This document shows positions 5,275 through 15,112 of a stretch of DNA of 15,112 nt, piece by piece. Under the pieces are notes generated by a model. That model was given only the letters and a program-made list of their open reading frames with translations. It did not search any database and was not told the DNA's origin. Within the stretch, counting starts at the first letter, position 1; each line of letters starts with the position of its first letter. A program made the translations under genes and the position numbers. Source of the stretch: a virus (lineage: Duplodnaviria; Heunggongvirae; Uroviricota; Caudoviricetes); IMG/VR virus record IMGVR_UViG_2541047905_000022; one strand, 5' to 3'.

Positions 5275-5832
5275 TCAACAATGAATTTTTAGCAATTGCT
5301 CCACAGTCATATTTTTAATTGCGCTCCGGTTTACAAGAGTCCATCCTTGTTTCTCCAGATAAAACCGGAAGGTATCCAGGGTGCAGACCATTGCGCCGTC
5401 AGGAACGGTTTCAGTGAATTTGATATTGCCGTGTTCGTCGAGACGGATAACCAGGGTGCGTCCGTCCCCGTGAATCATTTTGTCGGGAGACGGGGCGTTA
5501 TTCTGGCGCAGTTCTGCTTCCATGCGGTCGAACTCAGCAATGTATGCCTCTTTAAATGCAGCGGCTTTTTTGCCAGTGAAGCCCATCACCAGGAAAACGA
5601 AGCCGTTTTTGGTGATTTGGTACATTGGGAGTTTGCGCCCGGTTGAGTCGGTGTATTCGCTTGACACAAAATTGTGCTCAGTGAATTTTGCTGAACAGTC
5701 CAGATTGCGAATTTTATCCAACACTCGTTCGTGGCGTTTGCCAAAGAACTCGGCGATCGCAACAGACGTAGTGACAGCGCGACCATTTTCGATGGTTACG
5801 TCAGGGTGAGAAAGGGTAAGGATAGTAGCCAT
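5275..5832 (-). CDS. rha: Phage regulatory protein Rha family, 185 aa
   Basis: ORF 5275..5889 trimmed to the internal ATG at 5832, which has a GGAGG Shine-Dalgarno 8 nt upstream; N-terminal domain MATILTLSHPDVTIENGRAVTTSVAIAEFFGKRHERVLDKIRNL... is the characteristic Rha fold sequence. Confidence 0.85.
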   Translation of the reverse strand: MATILTLSHPDVTIENGRAVTTSVAIAEFFGKRHERVLDKIRNLDCSAKFTEHNFVSSEYTDSTGRKLPMYQITKNGFVFLVMGFTGKKAAAFKEAYIAEFDRMEAELRQNNAPSPDKMIHGDGRTLVIRLDEHGNIKFTETVPDGAMVCTLDTFRFYLEKQGWTLVNRSAIKNMTVEQLLKIHC

Positions 5833-6002
5833 GATGGCAGCCTCCGCGATGAATTTGATTAACTCACCACCGAGGTTTTCCACGACCATAAGGGTGGTGA
5901 GACGTACAGGGGTGGAAAATACCGGTCATCACGGAACCCGGCCAGCCTTGCGGCTGCCCTGCACGCCCCACCATAATGCGAATGTGGCTGTGCTTAACGC
6001 AT

Positions 6003-6025
6003 AAAAAAACCGCCTGAGCGCGGTT
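6003..6025 (-). terminator. Rho-independent terminator (minus strand) between DicF and rha
   Basis: On the minus strand: stem ACCGC - loop GCTCAG - GCGGT followed by a run of 7 U (plus-strand A7 at 6003-6009). Confidence 0.5.
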
Positions 6026-6318
6026 ATGCGCCGTGAATGATTTCGGGTTTCCACGCCCGGCACCCGTTTTATGAGGTGCAGGTGCACTATAATTCCACCC
6101 GTTCTGGTTTTCAATAGCTACATTCAACATTTTCTCTACCTTTCATCACCGAAGTGAACTTTGTTGATGCGGTGCCTGGTGCCTCCAGGTGACGTTAACC
6201 AGTTAACAATTAACGTCGGATACAGAGCATTCCCGTTACGCCCGTAAAAGACCGCTTGTTTTAACTGTTCCGCGTGCGCTGAGCCGCATTCACCGCATCA
6301 CAAAATTCACTTTAAAAA

Positions 6319-6371
6319 GGGCGGCAGAGCAGTCACGGAGTAGAACTGATACCGCCAAAAGTCACCAGAAA
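6319..6371 (-). ncRNA. dicF: DicF small regulatory RNA (ftsZ-targeting antisense sRNA of dicB-type prophage operons)
   Basis: Minus-strand sequence TTTCTGGTGACTTTTGGCGGTATCAGTTCTACTCCGTGACTGCTCTGCCGCCC followed by TTTTT differs at only 2 of 53 positions from the E. coli K-12 DicF sequence as I recall it; located upstream of dicB as expected. Confidence 0.85.
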
Positions 6372-6904: not shown

Positions 6905-7243
6905 CATTTTTTTACGGCGTTCATATTCGTTAATATTTATGAAGCCTGTTGCCAGAAGCAGTTCGTTAATTTCATGGTTGTTTGGCTGTTTCTGGCTCTT
7001 TGAACTGGGATCTTCCACTTCTTTTTCTGCAAATTGTTTTGCTGTATCCTCTGTGCCATGGATATTTAAAGCTGTATCTGAAAACAGCCCAGTAAACGCA
7101 TCGCGCACATTACGAGCCATATTATCAGTGTCTTTTTTTGTTACCGATTCCAATTCAAGTTCGTTCAGACGATGACGAAGTGTGTGTGCTGCAATCTCCT
7201 GGATTGAAGGAGGTAAATCTTTAAATTCCATCGTCAACCTCAT
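6893..7243 (-). CDS. YdfB/YdfC-like uncharacterized protein (dicB-type operon), 116 aa (112 aa if started at ATG 7231)
   Basis: ORF 6893..7243; start overlaps the stop of the upstream small gene (coupling); an internal ATG at 7231 has a GAGG Shine-Dalgarno. Sequence EFKDLPPSIQEIAAHTLRHRLNELE resembles what I recall of Qin YdfB. Confidence 0.65.
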   Translation of the reverse strand: MRLTMEFKDLPPSIQEIAAHTLRHRLNELELESVTKKDTDNMARNVRDAFTGLFSDTALNIHGTEDTAKQFAEKEVEDPSSKSQKQPNNHEINELLLATGFININEYERRKKMLSD

Positions 7244-7395
7244 CAGTCGGAGTTTCTTGCTAACCAGCGACGCGCGCCAGCTTCGGTTTTAAACGTTTTG
7301 CTTTTGGTATACGTCATGGCGGTGAATGTGCCGTCCTGGTTGGGGAACACACCACATACCAGAGATTCGCTGTTGCCAAGATCGATAGTATCCAT
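7243..7395 (-). CDS. YdfA-like small protein, 50 aa
   Basis: ATG at 7395 preceded by GAGG (5-nt spacing); product MDTIDLGNSESLVCGVFPNQDGTFTAMTYTKSKTFKTEAGARRWLARNSD. The ORF-track 85-aa version requires a TTG start at 7500 that sits inside the predicted leftward promoter/operator, so I prefer the 50-aa form. Confidence 0.6.
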   Translation of the reverse strand: MDTIDLGNSESLVCGVFPNQDGTFTAMTYTKSKTFKTEAGARRWLARNSD

Positions 7396-7463
7396 GCTGA
7401 CCTCATTACCCCTTAACGCCGGGTAGCGGAACTGTTTGCTGAGAACACCGTGCGGTGTCTTGA

Positions 7464-7584
7464 TGGGTGGTAATTTAGTTTTCTCATGAATGTTGGTCAA
7501 GCATTTTTAATGAGAAAACTCAATATTTAATGCAAAATAAAGCCAATACATTGAAATGTAAGGCTTTAAAATTTGTGAAGGGGG
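7464..7584 (-). promoter_or_regulatory. Leftward early promoter/operator region (PL-like) downstream of the repressor gene
   Basis: Minus-strand -35 TTGACC (7499..7494), 17-nt spacer, -10 TAAATT (7476..7471); operator-like motif TGAGAAAACTCAA at 7511-7523 and an inverted near-copy (CATGAGAAAACTA on the minus strand) at 7476-7488 lying in the spacer. Confidence 0.45.
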
Positions 7585-7992
7585 TTACTGATGTTTGTTA
7601 CGTTTGCGAGCTTCTAGTAGCTCGGTGAATAGGCGATTAAAATTCTCAACGCGGGCACGGAGTTCGCTGATTTGTGCTTGCTGCTCTGATTTTGGAAGTG
7701 CGCGATACAATCGCAACATCTCCAACTCATCTTCCGATAAGTCTAAGGCGCTGTTGAGTGCTACTGGTGGATCTGGTGTTTTATCCTCGTCACCAAACAG
7801 TATCCAAGTTGGTGAACATTGCAATACCTCAGCCAGGCGATGCAAATTTTGCCCGCGCGGGGCTGTATGGTCGCTTTCCCATAGTGAAATTGATGAGCCA
7901 GATACGCCAGCGGCTTTGCTTAAATCGTTTTGACTTAAACCAACCTGTTTGCGTCTTTCTCTAATTCGTTGACCTAAAGTTTTCTCGTTCAT
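7585..7992 (-). CDS. dicA: Prophage repressor, DicA-like HTH XRE-family protein, 135 aa
   Basis: ORF 7585..7992; N-terminal HTH LGQRIRERRKQVGLSQNDLSKAAGVSGSSISLWE; the segment VLQCSPTWILFGDEDK and the C-terminal RARVENFN..LFTELLEARKR match my recollection of E. coli DicA (also 135 aa); divergent from a Cro-like gene. Confidence 0.9.
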   Translation of the reverse strand: MNEKTLGQRIRERRKQVGLSQNDLSKAAGVSGSSISLWESDHTAPRGQNLHRLAEVLQCSPTWILFGDEDKTPDPPVALNSALDLSEDELEMLRLYRALPKSEQQAQISELRARVENFNRLFTELLEARKRNKHQ

Positions 7993-8069
7993 ATTTAGAT
8001 ATCTTAATAACCCTTGACTTGAGATTCCTTGAATGATTACTATTGAGAAAACTCAACTTTGGAGGGGTG
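7993..8069. promoter_or_regulatory. Divergent immunity-region promoter/operator (OR-like) between dicA-like and dicC-like genes
   Basis: Rightward -35 TTGACT (8014-8019), 18-nt spacer, -10 TACTAT (8038-8043); operator-like palindrome TTGAGAAAACTCAA (8043-8056) at the predicted start site; 8-bp palindrome AGATATCT at 7997-8004; GGAGG Shine-Dalgarno at 8061-8065. Confidence 0.55.
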
Positions 8070-8297
8070 ATGTTTAAATCAGACGTAATTAATTTTTATG
8101 GGACGAAAGCCAAAGTAGCGAAAGCTGCTGGTGTTGATCCATCTGCTGTTTCTCAATGGGGGGAACTGGTTCCTGAAGGTCGCGCGATGCGCCTGCAAGA
8201 GGCATCCGTCGGGGAACTTCAGTACGACCCCAAAGTTTATGACGAATATCGTAAGGCAAAGCGGGCGGGGCGGTTGAACAATGAAAATCACCCCTGA
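8070..8297 (+). CDS. dicC: DicC-like Cro-type small regulator, 75 aa
   Basis: ATG at 8070 after GGAGG; product MFKSDVINFYGTKAKVAKAAGVDPSAVSQWGELVPEGRAMRLQEASVGELQYDPKVYDEYRK... resembles my recollection of DicC (76 aa); divergent from the repressor. The ORF-track start at 8043 is a TTG inside the promoter. Confidence 0.8.
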   Translation: MFKSDVINFYGTKAKVAKAAGVDPSAVSQWGELVPEGRAMRLQEASVGELQYDPKVYDEYRKAKRAGRLNNENHP

Positions 8298-8832
8298 ACA
8301 GGTTTGTGAGGCTCTGGATGCCTGGGTATGTCGACCAGGAATGACACAGGAGCAAGCGACGATATTAATCACGGAAGCATTCTGGGCTCTGAAAGAACGC
8401 CCGAACATCGATGTTCAACGCGTCACGTTTAATGATGGCGAGGTTGATCAACGGGCGCTGGGCGTTAACCGGGTGAAGATATTCGAACGCTGGAAAGCTA
8501 TCGACACCAGGGATAAGCGGAAAAAATTCACGGCGCTGATTCCGGCAATTATGGAGGCTATCCGAATTAGTGATTTCAGGTTGTATCGTGAGATCAGTGA
8601 TGGAAAAAGCATTACGTACATGATCGCCGGATTAAACAAAGAATATGGCGATGTGGTGGAGTCCGGGCTGCTTTTTGCGGATCCAGCTGTTGTGGAACGT
8701 GAGACTGACGAGCTTATAGAAAAAGCTATTGCTTTCAAGCATGCGTATCGTCAGCAATATCAATATTACTTTGCAGATAAACAAATGTCTGCCAGGGGTT
8801 TGTATGAGTATCGATGCACTACGATGGGCTAA
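8281..8832 (+). CDS. YdaT-family protein (CII-like / toxin YdaT domain), 183 aa
   Basis: ORF 8281..8832; segment RVKIFERWKAIDTRDKRKKFTALIPAIMEAI parallels the Rac YdaT motif (KIFRW..KD......ALLPAIEKS); overlaps the dicC-like 3' end by 17 nt, as in ydaS-ydaT pairs. Confidence 0.7.
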   Translation: MKITPEQVCEALDAWVCRPGMTQEQATILITEAFWALKERPNIDVQRVTFNDGEVDQRALGVNRVKIFERWKAIDTRDKRKKFTALIPAIMEAIRISDFRLYREISDGKSITYMIAGLNKEYGDVVESGLLFADPAVVERETDELIEKAIAFKHAYRQQYQYYFADKQMSARGLYEYRCTTMG

Positions 8833-12444: not shown

Positions 12445-12499
12445 GGCTGCGGGTGCTTGAGGCTATCTGTCTCAGGCATGAACACTGAAAGGCAGATAG

Positions 12500-12572
12500 A
12501 GAAAAGCCCCAGTTAACATTTCGCGTCCTGCAAGACGCTTAACATTAATCTGAGGCCCAATCTATGTCTCAC
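12500..12572 (-). ncRNA. Candidate Sok-like antisense RNA of the hok locus
   Basis: Minus-strand -35 TTGCCT (12607..12602), 17-nt spacer, -10 TAACCT (12584..12579); the predicted antisense transcript would cover the GAGG Shine-Dalgarno (12552-12555) and in-frame upstream ATG (12564) of the hok leader. The 3' end is not defined; a GCGTC/GACGC hairpin lies at about 12522-12537. Confidence 0.3.
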
Positions 12573-12620
12573 AAATGTAGGTTAGCCTCTTACGTGCCGA
12601 AAGGCAAGGGGAAGCAGGCT

Positions 12621-12776
12621 ATGAAGCAGCAAAAGGCGATGTTAATCGCCCTGATCGTCATCTGTTTAACCGTCATTGTGACGGCACTGGTAACGAGGAA
12701 AGACCTCTGCGAGGTACGAATCCGAACCGGCCAGACGGAGGTCGCTGTCTTCACAGCTTACGAACCTGAGGAGTAA
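12621..12776 (+). CDS. hok: Hok/Gef family type I toxin (HokD/RelF-like), 51 aa
   Basis: ATG at 12621; product MKQQKAMLIALIVICLTVIVTALVTRKDLCEVRIRTGQTEVAVFTAYEPEE, which I recognise as Hok-family (essentially HokD/RelF); single transmembrane helix plus conserved C-terminal tail. The ORF track extends it in-frame to 12564 (70 aa), a mok-like upstream start. Confidence 0.85.
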   Translation: MKQQKAMLIALIVICLTVIVTALVTRKDLCEVRIRTGQTEVAVFTAYEPEE

Positions 12777-14785: not shown

Positions 14786-14887
14786 ATGGACCCCGAACAG
14801 GGGGAGTGCTATTTATCTGGAAGGATTCTGTTGATGAAAATCGAAGAATTACGTGAAATTTTTAGTGAAGATGGCCTCTATGCTGTG
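14786..14887 (+). pseudogene. 5' fragment of an ORF apparently truncated by the IS insertion
   Basis: Candidate promoter (-35 TTGAAG 14721-14726, -10 TAGAAT 14745-14750) and GGAG Shine-Dalgarno precede the ATG at 14786; the reading frame MDPEQGECYLSGRILLMKIEELREIFSEDGLYAV runs directly into the IS terminal repeat, whose first bases TGA (14888-14890) supply the stop. Confidence 0.3.
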
Positions 14888-15112
14888 TGAACCGCCCCGG
14901 GTTTCCTGGAGAGTATTTTATCTGTGAACTCAGGCTGCCAGATCATCGTTTCCGATGGAAGCATAATAAGCTTTTTCTGCTTCTGCCGGAGGAGTATGGC
15001 CCAGCCTTTCCAGCAATCGTCGATTGTTATACCAGTCCACCCACGTGAGTGTGGCCAGTTCCACTTCTGCACGGTTTTTCCAGCTCTTACGGTGTATTAC
15101 CTCCGCTTTGTA
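14888..15112 (-). mobile_element. IS3-family insertion sequence, IS629/IS1203-like, terminal portion (element continues beyond the window)
   Basis: Sequence from 14888, TGAACCGCCCCGGGTTTCCTGGAGAGTATTTTATCTGTGAACTCAGG, matches the IS629-type terminal inverted repeat as I recall it; followed on the minus strand by the C-terminal end of an IS3-family OrfB transposase. Confidence 0.8.
14930..15112 (-). CDS. IS3-family transposase OrfB, C-terminal 60 codons (5'-partial, start outside window)
   Basis: Minus-strand translation ...YKAEVIHRKSWKNRAEVELATLTWVDWYNNRRLLERLGHTPPAEAEKAYYASIGNDDLAA then stop (TGA, plus 14930-14932); the WVDWYNNRRL motif is the conserved DDE-integrase C-terminal signature of IS3-family transposases. 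Confidence 0.8.
   Translation of the reverse strand, partial: YKAEVIHRKSWKNRAEVELATLTWVDWYNNRRLLERLGHTPPAEAEKAYYASIGNDDLAA

Follow-up and report, generated by a model that had tools for sequence, protein, structure and literature searches.

The window, which is the whole 15,112-bp stretch of DNA that was analyzed, carries a gene for a DicA-like repressor and a divergent Cro/DicC-like gene, as listed in Table 1 with the neighboring features. The repressor had been called DicA-like from the outset and this description held up, since it matches the NCBIfam DicA model (NF007257) over its full length (positions 1-135 of 135, 238.3 bits, cut-off 101). Its N-terminal 72 residues match P22 C2 (1ADR/2R1J, E=2e-15). 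The only Pfam matches in the repressor were HTH domains at residues 6-71, and an S24 peptidase (LexA-like) self-cleavage domain is absent. The Cro-like protein matches the NCBIfam DicC model (NF007282) with 163.3 bits (cut-off 130) and P22 Cro (1RZS) with E=2e-12.

Beyond ydfA, the leftward strand contains the DicF, isrK and C4 RNAs, a Rha/Ant-like gene, an exonuclease gene and an integrase gene. In two close relatives (L001 and L002), the annotation places dicB between the Rha-type and exonuclease genes. Such an arrangement is that of the Qin dicA-dicC-dicB locus and, more broadly, of lambdoid immunity regions (PMC10448788). A Rem-like ORF is present in the window alongside the Rha/Ant-like gene. 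With its replication genes and integrase, the prophage region looks intact and not decayed. Locus L002 (NZ_CP026723) is 100% identical to the window over 7200-8400 only. Overall, the window is a different mosaic from L002, and it adjoins a tRNA and mtfA. Of 5426 complete E. coli genomes, 796 carry a copy with at least 80% coverage of the region.

Table 1. Genes, predicted promoters and candidate operator sites around the DicA-like repressor gene of the window.
Feature	Position	Strand	Sequence or description
ydfA-like DUF1391 gene	7243..7395	-	First gene of the leftward operon
Predicted leftward early promoter PL (dicBp-like)	7472..7500	-	-35 TTGACC 7500-7495, 17-bp spacer, -10 TAAATT 7477-7472; consensus scan
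Predicted operator OL1	7474..7487		TTTAGTTTTCTCAT = TTTAG-TTTT-CTCAT; covers the spacer and -10 of predicted PL
9-mer GAGAAAACT	7477-7485	-	Exact match
Predicted operator OL2	7510..7523		ATGAGAAAACTCAA = ATGAG-AAAA-CTCAA; 9 bp upstream of the leftward -35
9-mer GAGAAAACT	7512-7520	+	Exact match
Terminator-like hairpin and U-rich run	7533..7575	-	Just past the repressor stop codon, before OL2; -12.3 kcal/mol, z = -3.06
DicA-like repressor gene, 135 aa	7585..7992	-	HTH_3 N-terminal domain and short helical C-terminal domain
In-CDS copy	7975..7988		TAAAGTTTTCTCGT; codons 2-6 (NEKTL) of the repressor; 9-bp core exact
9-mer GAGAAAACT	7978-7986	-	Exact match
Predicted operator Oa	7994..8007		TTTAGATATCTTAA; degenerate; adjoins the repressor start codon; contains the putative repressor-promoter -10
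Putative repressor-promoter -10, TAAGAT	8001..8006	-	Inside Oa, 8 nt before the ATG; read from the sequence
Predicted rightward early promoter PR (dicCp-like)	8014..8043	+	-35 TTGACT 8014-8019, 18-bp spacer, -10 TACTAT 8038-8043; consensus scan
Predicted operator Om	8019..8032		TTGAGATTCCTTGA; weak; over the -35 and spacer of the predicted rightward promoter
Predicted operator Oc	8043..8056		TTGAGAAAACTCAA = TTGAG-AAAA-CTCAA; arms perfectly symmetric; over the last -10 base and the predicted rightward start
9-mer GAGAAAACT	8045-8053	+	Exact match
Cro/DicC-like gene, 75 aa	8070..8297	+	Pfam P22_Cro; profile match
YdaT-like (CII-like) gene	8281..8832	+	Followed by O- and P-like replication genes

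The original prediction was that the two early promoter regions share a 13-bp motif, TGAGAAAACTCAA, and exact copies of it were found at 7511-7523 and 8044-8056. Inverted near-copies had also been reported at 7476-7488 and 7975-7987. Both exist, but the first is located at 7474-7486 and has one mismatch, while the second is exact over its 9-bp core, differs at 3 of 13 positions, and lies inside the repressor coding sequence (CDS) instead of between genes. The window holds exactly four copies of the 9-mer core, GAGAAAACT, compared to an expected 0.18, and none of 200 dinucleotide-preserving shuffles reached four. All four copies cluster around the repressor gene. The complete genomes of the phages mEp460_ev081 (45.9 kb) and HannyBb (45.3 kb) contain the 9-mer five times each, with about 0.3 expected. 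Four of the five are at the homologous positions of the immunity region in both phages, and the fifth is elsewhere, in a place that differs from one phage to the other. Therefore, the motif is not spread through the phage genome, and a uniform genome-wide frequency was not found.

The predicted working unit is a partly symmetric 14-bp site with the consensus TT(G/T)AG-(A/T)4-CT(C/T)AA, and not a directional 9- or 13-mer as first described. The candidate operator is probably 18 bp long in the P22 register. The copies that had been read as direct and inverted differ solely in the orientation of an asymmetric A4 center, which is present in every strong site. A search for TTGAGN4CTCAA (TTGAGNNNNCTCAA) with up to two mismatches returned seven matches in the window, a total that is not above chance (7.95 expected), and five of them lie within the 266 bp of the two intergenic regions. 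At the same threshold, no third OL site was found. The promoters carry no further repeated palindrome.

The five sites listed in Table 1 include OL1, OL2 and Oc, which the original prediction had captured, and Oa and Om, which it had missed. The names Oa, Om and Oc are those of the K-12 operators as they appear in PMC10448788 and PMC3441716. By position, their lambda counterparts are OR3, OR2 and OR1, respectively. OL1 and OL2 flank the leftward -35 with their centers 36 bp apart, both upstream of ydfA. Oa, Om and Oc all fall in the 77-bp region (7993-8069) between the divergent repressor and cro-like genes, and their centers are spaced 25 and 24 bp. Om is a poor match to the consensus with a convincing left half-site only, and this half-site varies with the immunity type. 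Local dinucleotide shuffles were used to assess the clustering. Three or more sites in OR were seen in 0 of 20000 shuffles, the two extra sites (Oa and Om) in the 50 bp of OR to the left of Oc gave P=0.00025, and the two sites in OL gave P=0.0034.

The predicted sites overlap the -10, spacer, -35 or start of both promoters predicted by the consensus scan, consistent with the earlier claim that they overlap the -10/spacer or start of each promoter. OL1 covers the leftward spacer and -10, and Oc covers the end of the rightward -10 and the predicted start. The promoter scan is weak alone, as it gave two promoter-like sites compared to 1.8 in shuffles. However, the assignment of PR is supported by homology to the mapped dicC promoter of K-12. 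The -35 TTGACT is aligned across all four immunity types described below, including an exact alignment with K-12 dicCp. In K-12, the start of dicC was located by 5'RACE, and the -10 is overlapped by Oc, the DicA operator that was tested (PMC3441716); the predicted sites of the window occupy the same positions as this operator, in agreement with the proposed layout. The layout of PL matches that of K-12 Qin upstream of ydfA.

The repressor ATG has neither a Shine-Dalgarno sequence nor a good -35 upstream, and types B-D carry TAGAAT or TAGCAT at the position of TAAGAT. The lack of a Shine-Dalgarno sequence together with a putative -10 only 8 nt from the ATG would imply a leaderless repressor mRNA, and the overall arrangement suggests that this mRNA is weak and activator-dependent. 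A weak, activator-dependent promoter would fit the activation of dicA by DicA at Oc described in PMC3441716. The paaR2 and lambda cI mRNAs are also leaderless (PMC8630535). The conserved leftward leader (7396-7470) was examined for structured RNA, and its fold was no better than shuffles (z=+0.31).

Related loci were then compared, drawn from complete E. coli genomes, phage records, GTDB genomes and IMG/VR. The 9-mer is present in 89 of 89 loci with the repressor helix GVS(G/D)SSISLWE, at two to four copies each, and in none of the 22 loci with other repressor helices. Over these 111 loci, the motif follows the repressor/cro module, and it is selectively conserved, as described below, which favors the OL/OR-like layout at a DicA-like repressor that had been put forward. 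Four immunity types could be distinguished. Their flanks are near-identical, with the ydfA leader to the left and ydaT plus the 3' half of cro to the right. What distinguishes the types is the repressor, the 5' half of cro, and the palindromes at matching positions. The strongest predicted operator is TTGAG-AAAA-CTCAA in type A (the window and mEp460), CCTTAG-N6-CTAAGG in type C (PPompW), and TGTTAG-N6-CTAACA in type D (L010); in type B (K-12 Qin), the strongest operator is TTGTTAG-N6-CTAACAA. Thus, a different repressor/Cro recognition helix goes with a different predicted operator sequence. A counterpart palindrome of Oa is found in the same place in types B-D.

Conservation within type A was examined with 46 unique sequences. 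Mean column variability was 0.007 in the sites and 0.049 in the other intergenic columns, an approximately 7-fold contrast (P=0.005 by random placement of five blocks), although these sequences are closely related and shared descent could account for part of it. The columns of OL1 and OL2 are near-invariant, Oa is invariant, and the spacers adjoining the sites contain the most variable columns. A more distant locus, L015 from Buttiauxella gaviniae, has a repressor CDS with 68% DNA identity to that of the window. Its Oa is identical at 16 of 16 positions, and its Oc, OL1 and OL2 are each identical at 13 of 14.

Taken together, the findings make it highly probable that a lambdoid prophage switch of the DicA/DicC type (Qin-like, P22-related) acts through this motif, which would form the core of its immunity operators. 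Each site would bind the 135-aa HTH repressor as a dimer. On Oc, the repressor would block RNA polymerase at PR and keep the cro-like, ydaT-like and replication genes off. On OL1 and OL2, it would block PL and keep ydfA, DicF, the Rha/Ant-like gene, dicB, the exonuclease gene, xis and int off. By analogy with lambda OR2/OR3 and K-12 DicA, Om and Oa would be weaker sites that set the activation and autorepression of the repressor's own promoter. An order of occupancy, and cooperativity or looping between OL and OR (533 bp apart), are steps that we infer. In K-12, binding of DicA to Oc in vivo, repression of dicC and activation of dicA are reported in PMC3441716, and DicA represses dicBp upstream of ydfA (PMC10448788). 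Since the repressor of the window lacks a cleavage domain, induction probably occurs through an antirepressor (Rem or Rha/Ant-like) and not through RecA cleavage. The analogy is again with K-12, where Rem acts on DicA as an antirepressor and DicA likewise lacks a cleavage domain (PMC10448788).

The in-CDS copy probably does not serve as an operator. The outer TT is missing from both half-sites, types B-D have no counterpart, and the copy is broken in L015 (GAAATGACG), L016 and L017, where the intergenic sites are still present. The missing counterparts and the broken copies do not support its reading as a regular OR operator. Another possible explanation, which we regard as doubtful, is that it is a fourth functional operator at which bound repressor or Cro would block elongation or 70S initiation on the repressor mRNA. 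The copy would lie at about +2 to +20 of the putative leaderless mRNA, for which the start is placed near 7994-7992. The chance of an exact 9-mer so near the operators was estimated at roughly 0.002-0.005, and sequence variation is low within type A. If true, an operator in the CDS would give DicA-type switches a level of autoregulation that has not been described for them, and the strictly conserved asymmetric A4 center would orient paired sites in OL and OR.

It is very likely that the Cro/DicC-like protein uses the same sites as the repressor. Because the repressor and Cro are co-inherited, comparing loci cannot by itself reveal which protein reads which site. In L015-L017, which have the Cro helix xxSAVSQW, Oa is unchanged, and it is Oc and OL that vary along with the repressor helix. 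Types C and D, too, have one Cro helix and one Oa between them and differ in Oc. Both patterns make Oa a good candidate for a Cro-preferred site, and it is probably the site preferred by the Cro-like protein, as for OR3. An extension of this idea, that the sites are read by the Cro/DicC-like protein only and that the DicA-like repressor uses other sequences, could draw on this behavior of Oa and on the joint change of Cro and repressor helices across loci. We consider it unlikely. Oc, OL1 and OL2 change in L016 and L017, where the Cro helix is near-identical to that of the window and the repressor helix is different. Types C and D have a common Cro helix and Oa, yet the outer bases of their Oc and OL differ, as do their repressors. 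The promoters offer no second repeated palindrome, and DicA itself binds the homologous Oc in K-12, as stated in PMC3441716.

The motif could also be the binding site of the YdaT-like (CII-like) regulator encoded downstream, whose gene lies within 250 bp of Oc. The YdaT of CP-933P recognizes TTGATT-N6-AATCAA, an inverted repeat that also begins with TTGA (PMC9986795). This seems very improbable because the published site is located at the 3' end of the cro-like gene and not at PR or PL (PMC9986795), and the cro/ydaT junction of the window contains only a weak, non-significant match to it at 8274-8291. Locus L008 carries the same annotated YdaT accession as L002 (WP_000705383.1) together with a type C repressor, cro and operators, and it contains zero copies of the motif. 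This indicates that the motif belongs to the repressor/cro module and not to YdaT. In addition, the motif is kept in loci of the same immunity that have other YdaT alleles. A YdaT operator was rejected, as the motif does not track the YdaT allele and differs from TTGATT-N6-AATCAA in spacing and location.

Equally improbable is that the repeats are not protein sites at all and represent promoter sequence common to both regions, the remains of a duplication, or chance similarity in A+T-rich DNA. Both intergenic regions are A+T-rich, the 21-nt stretches around OL2 and Oc are 86% identical, and the number of loose palindrome matches given above is as expected by chance. Against this, the local shuffles gave P values of 0.0034 or less, and the motif switches with the recognition helix. 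The sites are variously placed relative to the -35 and -10 (upstream of the -35, in the spacer, after the -10) and are thus not a promoter element. The sites persist, even from one genus to another, although the DNA between them has diverged. Chance and a promoter element were both rejected on the basis of the local shuffles, the varied positions, and this conservation across genera.

The least credible alternative, recognition of the A-tract sites by a host nucleoid protein (H-NS, Fis or IHF), could account for the A4 center and recalls the antagonism of DicA-operator binding by the CnuK9E-H-NS complex in K-12 (PMC3441716), but a host factor would need no distinct palindrome per immunity type at the same positions, nor would it explain the perfect association of the motif with one repressor helix.

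The reading of the sites as immunity operators would provide a testable operator consensus for one DicA/DicC immunity type, which includes the active phages mEp460_ev081 and HannyBb. A search of the literature with the site sequence returned unrelated eukaryotic matches only, and the mEp460 literature that was found consists of genome surveys. PL would drive DicF and DicB, which are inhibitors of host cell division. The sites should be useful for annotation and for work on dicBF control. With the sites known, it would become possible to predict heteroimmunity from sequence and to construct clean reporter or derepression mutants. The four immunity types on one conserved scaffold also form a natural data set on the joint change of HTH helix and half-site.

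One of the closest known systems is K-12 Qin. It has the same gene order of ydfA, dicA, a divergent dicC and a ydaT/ydfX-type gene, with DicF and dicB downstream. Its DicA is also 135 aa long and is 56% identical to the repressor of the window, the C-terminal half of the Cro-like protein is near-identical, and the -35 TTGACT is in the same place. In both systems, the strongest operator is over the end of the rightward -10 and two sites flank the leftward -35. The recognition helix, however, is SGSSISLWES in the window and SHVSVSQWER in K-12. Oc is TTGAGAAAACTCAA in the window compared to TTGTTAGTCATAACTAACAA in K-12, and the K-12-type palindrome is absent from the window. Since both the helix and the operator differ from those of K-12 DicA, a different immunity specificity is predicted. 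K-12 Qin is also decayed, whereas the prophage region of the window looks intact.

P22 immC is related through C2 and Cro, which are homologous to the window proteins, and its operators are likewise partly symmetric. Oa (ATTTAGATATCTTAAT) resembles the P22 operator consensus, ATTTAAGATATCTTAAAT. The positions that presumably contact bases in P22 C2 (32, 33, 37 and 40) are G, S, L and S in the repressor of the window. In contrast to P22, the repressor of the window has no S24 peptidase/RecA-cleavage domain, and the half-site is TTGAG instead of TTAAG.

The PaaR2/YdaS/YdaT system of CP-933P from E. coli O157:H7 also has a short HTH repressor that lacks a cleavage domain, accompanied by a Cro-like protein and by YdaT as a CII analogue. 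It has repeated palindromes at PR/PRM and again at a PL, and its repressor mRNA is leaderless (PMC8630535). It differs in its half-sites (consensus GTTTAGTAA) and in having four 18-bp sites at equal spacing. The PaaR2 repressor is co-transcribed with a toxin-antitoxin pair, and no such pair is present in the window.

With lambda, the window shares divergent repressor and cro genes, three predicted OR sites approximately 24 bp apart over PR and the repressor promoter, and an operator motif found again at a second, leftward promoter on the other side of the repressor gene. The spacing of the lambda OR sites is 23-24 bp. The C-terminal fold of the repressor is unrelated to that of lambda, and OL has two detectable sites in the window compared to three in lambda. 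OL and OR are 0.5 kb apart in the window and approximately 2.3 kb apart in lambda. The window system is a member of the DicA/DicC subfamily with standard lambdoid OL/OR architecture, and the accepted picture of the lambdoid switch is unchanged.

The ydfA leader (7396-7470) and the 3' half of cro together with ydaT (about 8160-8400) were ~90-97% identical across four immunity types, and the DNA between the leader and the cro 3' half was replaced wholesale among them. The left mosaic junction, at ~7470, was found inside the outer half of OL1, a predicted operator of the leftward promoter PL, and the -10 of PL. The right junction was located within cro, near the LVPEGRAMRLQEAS motif.

Between the stop codon of the DicA-like repressor gene and OL2, the second predicted PL operator, a hairpin that leads into a U-rich run was found immediately past the stop codon, at 7533-7575 (-), with a folding energy of -12.3 kcal/mol (z=-3.06). 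This is probably the terminator of the repressor gene, and a terminator at this position would shield the leftward promoter against read-through. At the 5' end of the repressor gene, a 152-aa repressor is annotated or readable from an in-frame upstream ATG (MLITQGISS...) in phage HannyBb (L115, 30122-30580) and in three other related loci, L013 and L014 from GTDB and L015 from Buttiauxella gaviniae. The upstream ATG is probably a wrong start because the extension would cross Oa and Om, the predicted operators near the rightward promoter PR, as well as the -35 of PR. In the window, the N-terminal extension is closed by a stop codon. The MAG contigs L013 and L014, which are recorded as 'Bacillota bacterium' and 'Veillonella parvula', contain this same immunity region of an E. 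coli prophage, and their repressor is 96% identical; this is probably binning contamination.

OL1 with its flank (7477-7494) and the first repressor codons (7978-7995) showed 78% similarity over 18 nt. The similarity may be what is left of a duplicated operator, and it could account for the exact operator-core 9-mer in repressor codons 2-6.

The DicA-like repressor is without a cleavage domain. A candidate antirepressor for it is the Rem-like ORF at 14831-14977 (+), which was 44% identical to mEp460 Rem over 54 aa. A sok/hok toxin-antitoxin module (12451-12776) lies in the late-early region. A tRNA gene adjoins the integrase gene (892-978 and 1034-2059) and probably marks the attachment site; related genomes have an mtfA flank.

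Features of the leftward operon
Feature	Position	Strand
DicF	6319-6370	-
isrK RNA	6003-6079	-
C4 antisense RNA	5890-5978	-
Rha/Ant-like gene	5275-5889	-

In the downstream part of this operon, DicF, isrK and the C4 antisense RNA lie directly upstream of the Rha/Ant-like gene (window 5275-6370). The set looks like a P1 immI-type C4/antirepressor arrangement inside a Qin-like dicBF operon. A weak YdaT-type inverted repeat, TTGAACAATGAAAATCAC (8274-8291), had three mismatches to TTGATT-N6-AATCAA and was not statistically significant; it occupies the same position, the cro/ydaT junction, at which the YdaT of CP-933P binds.
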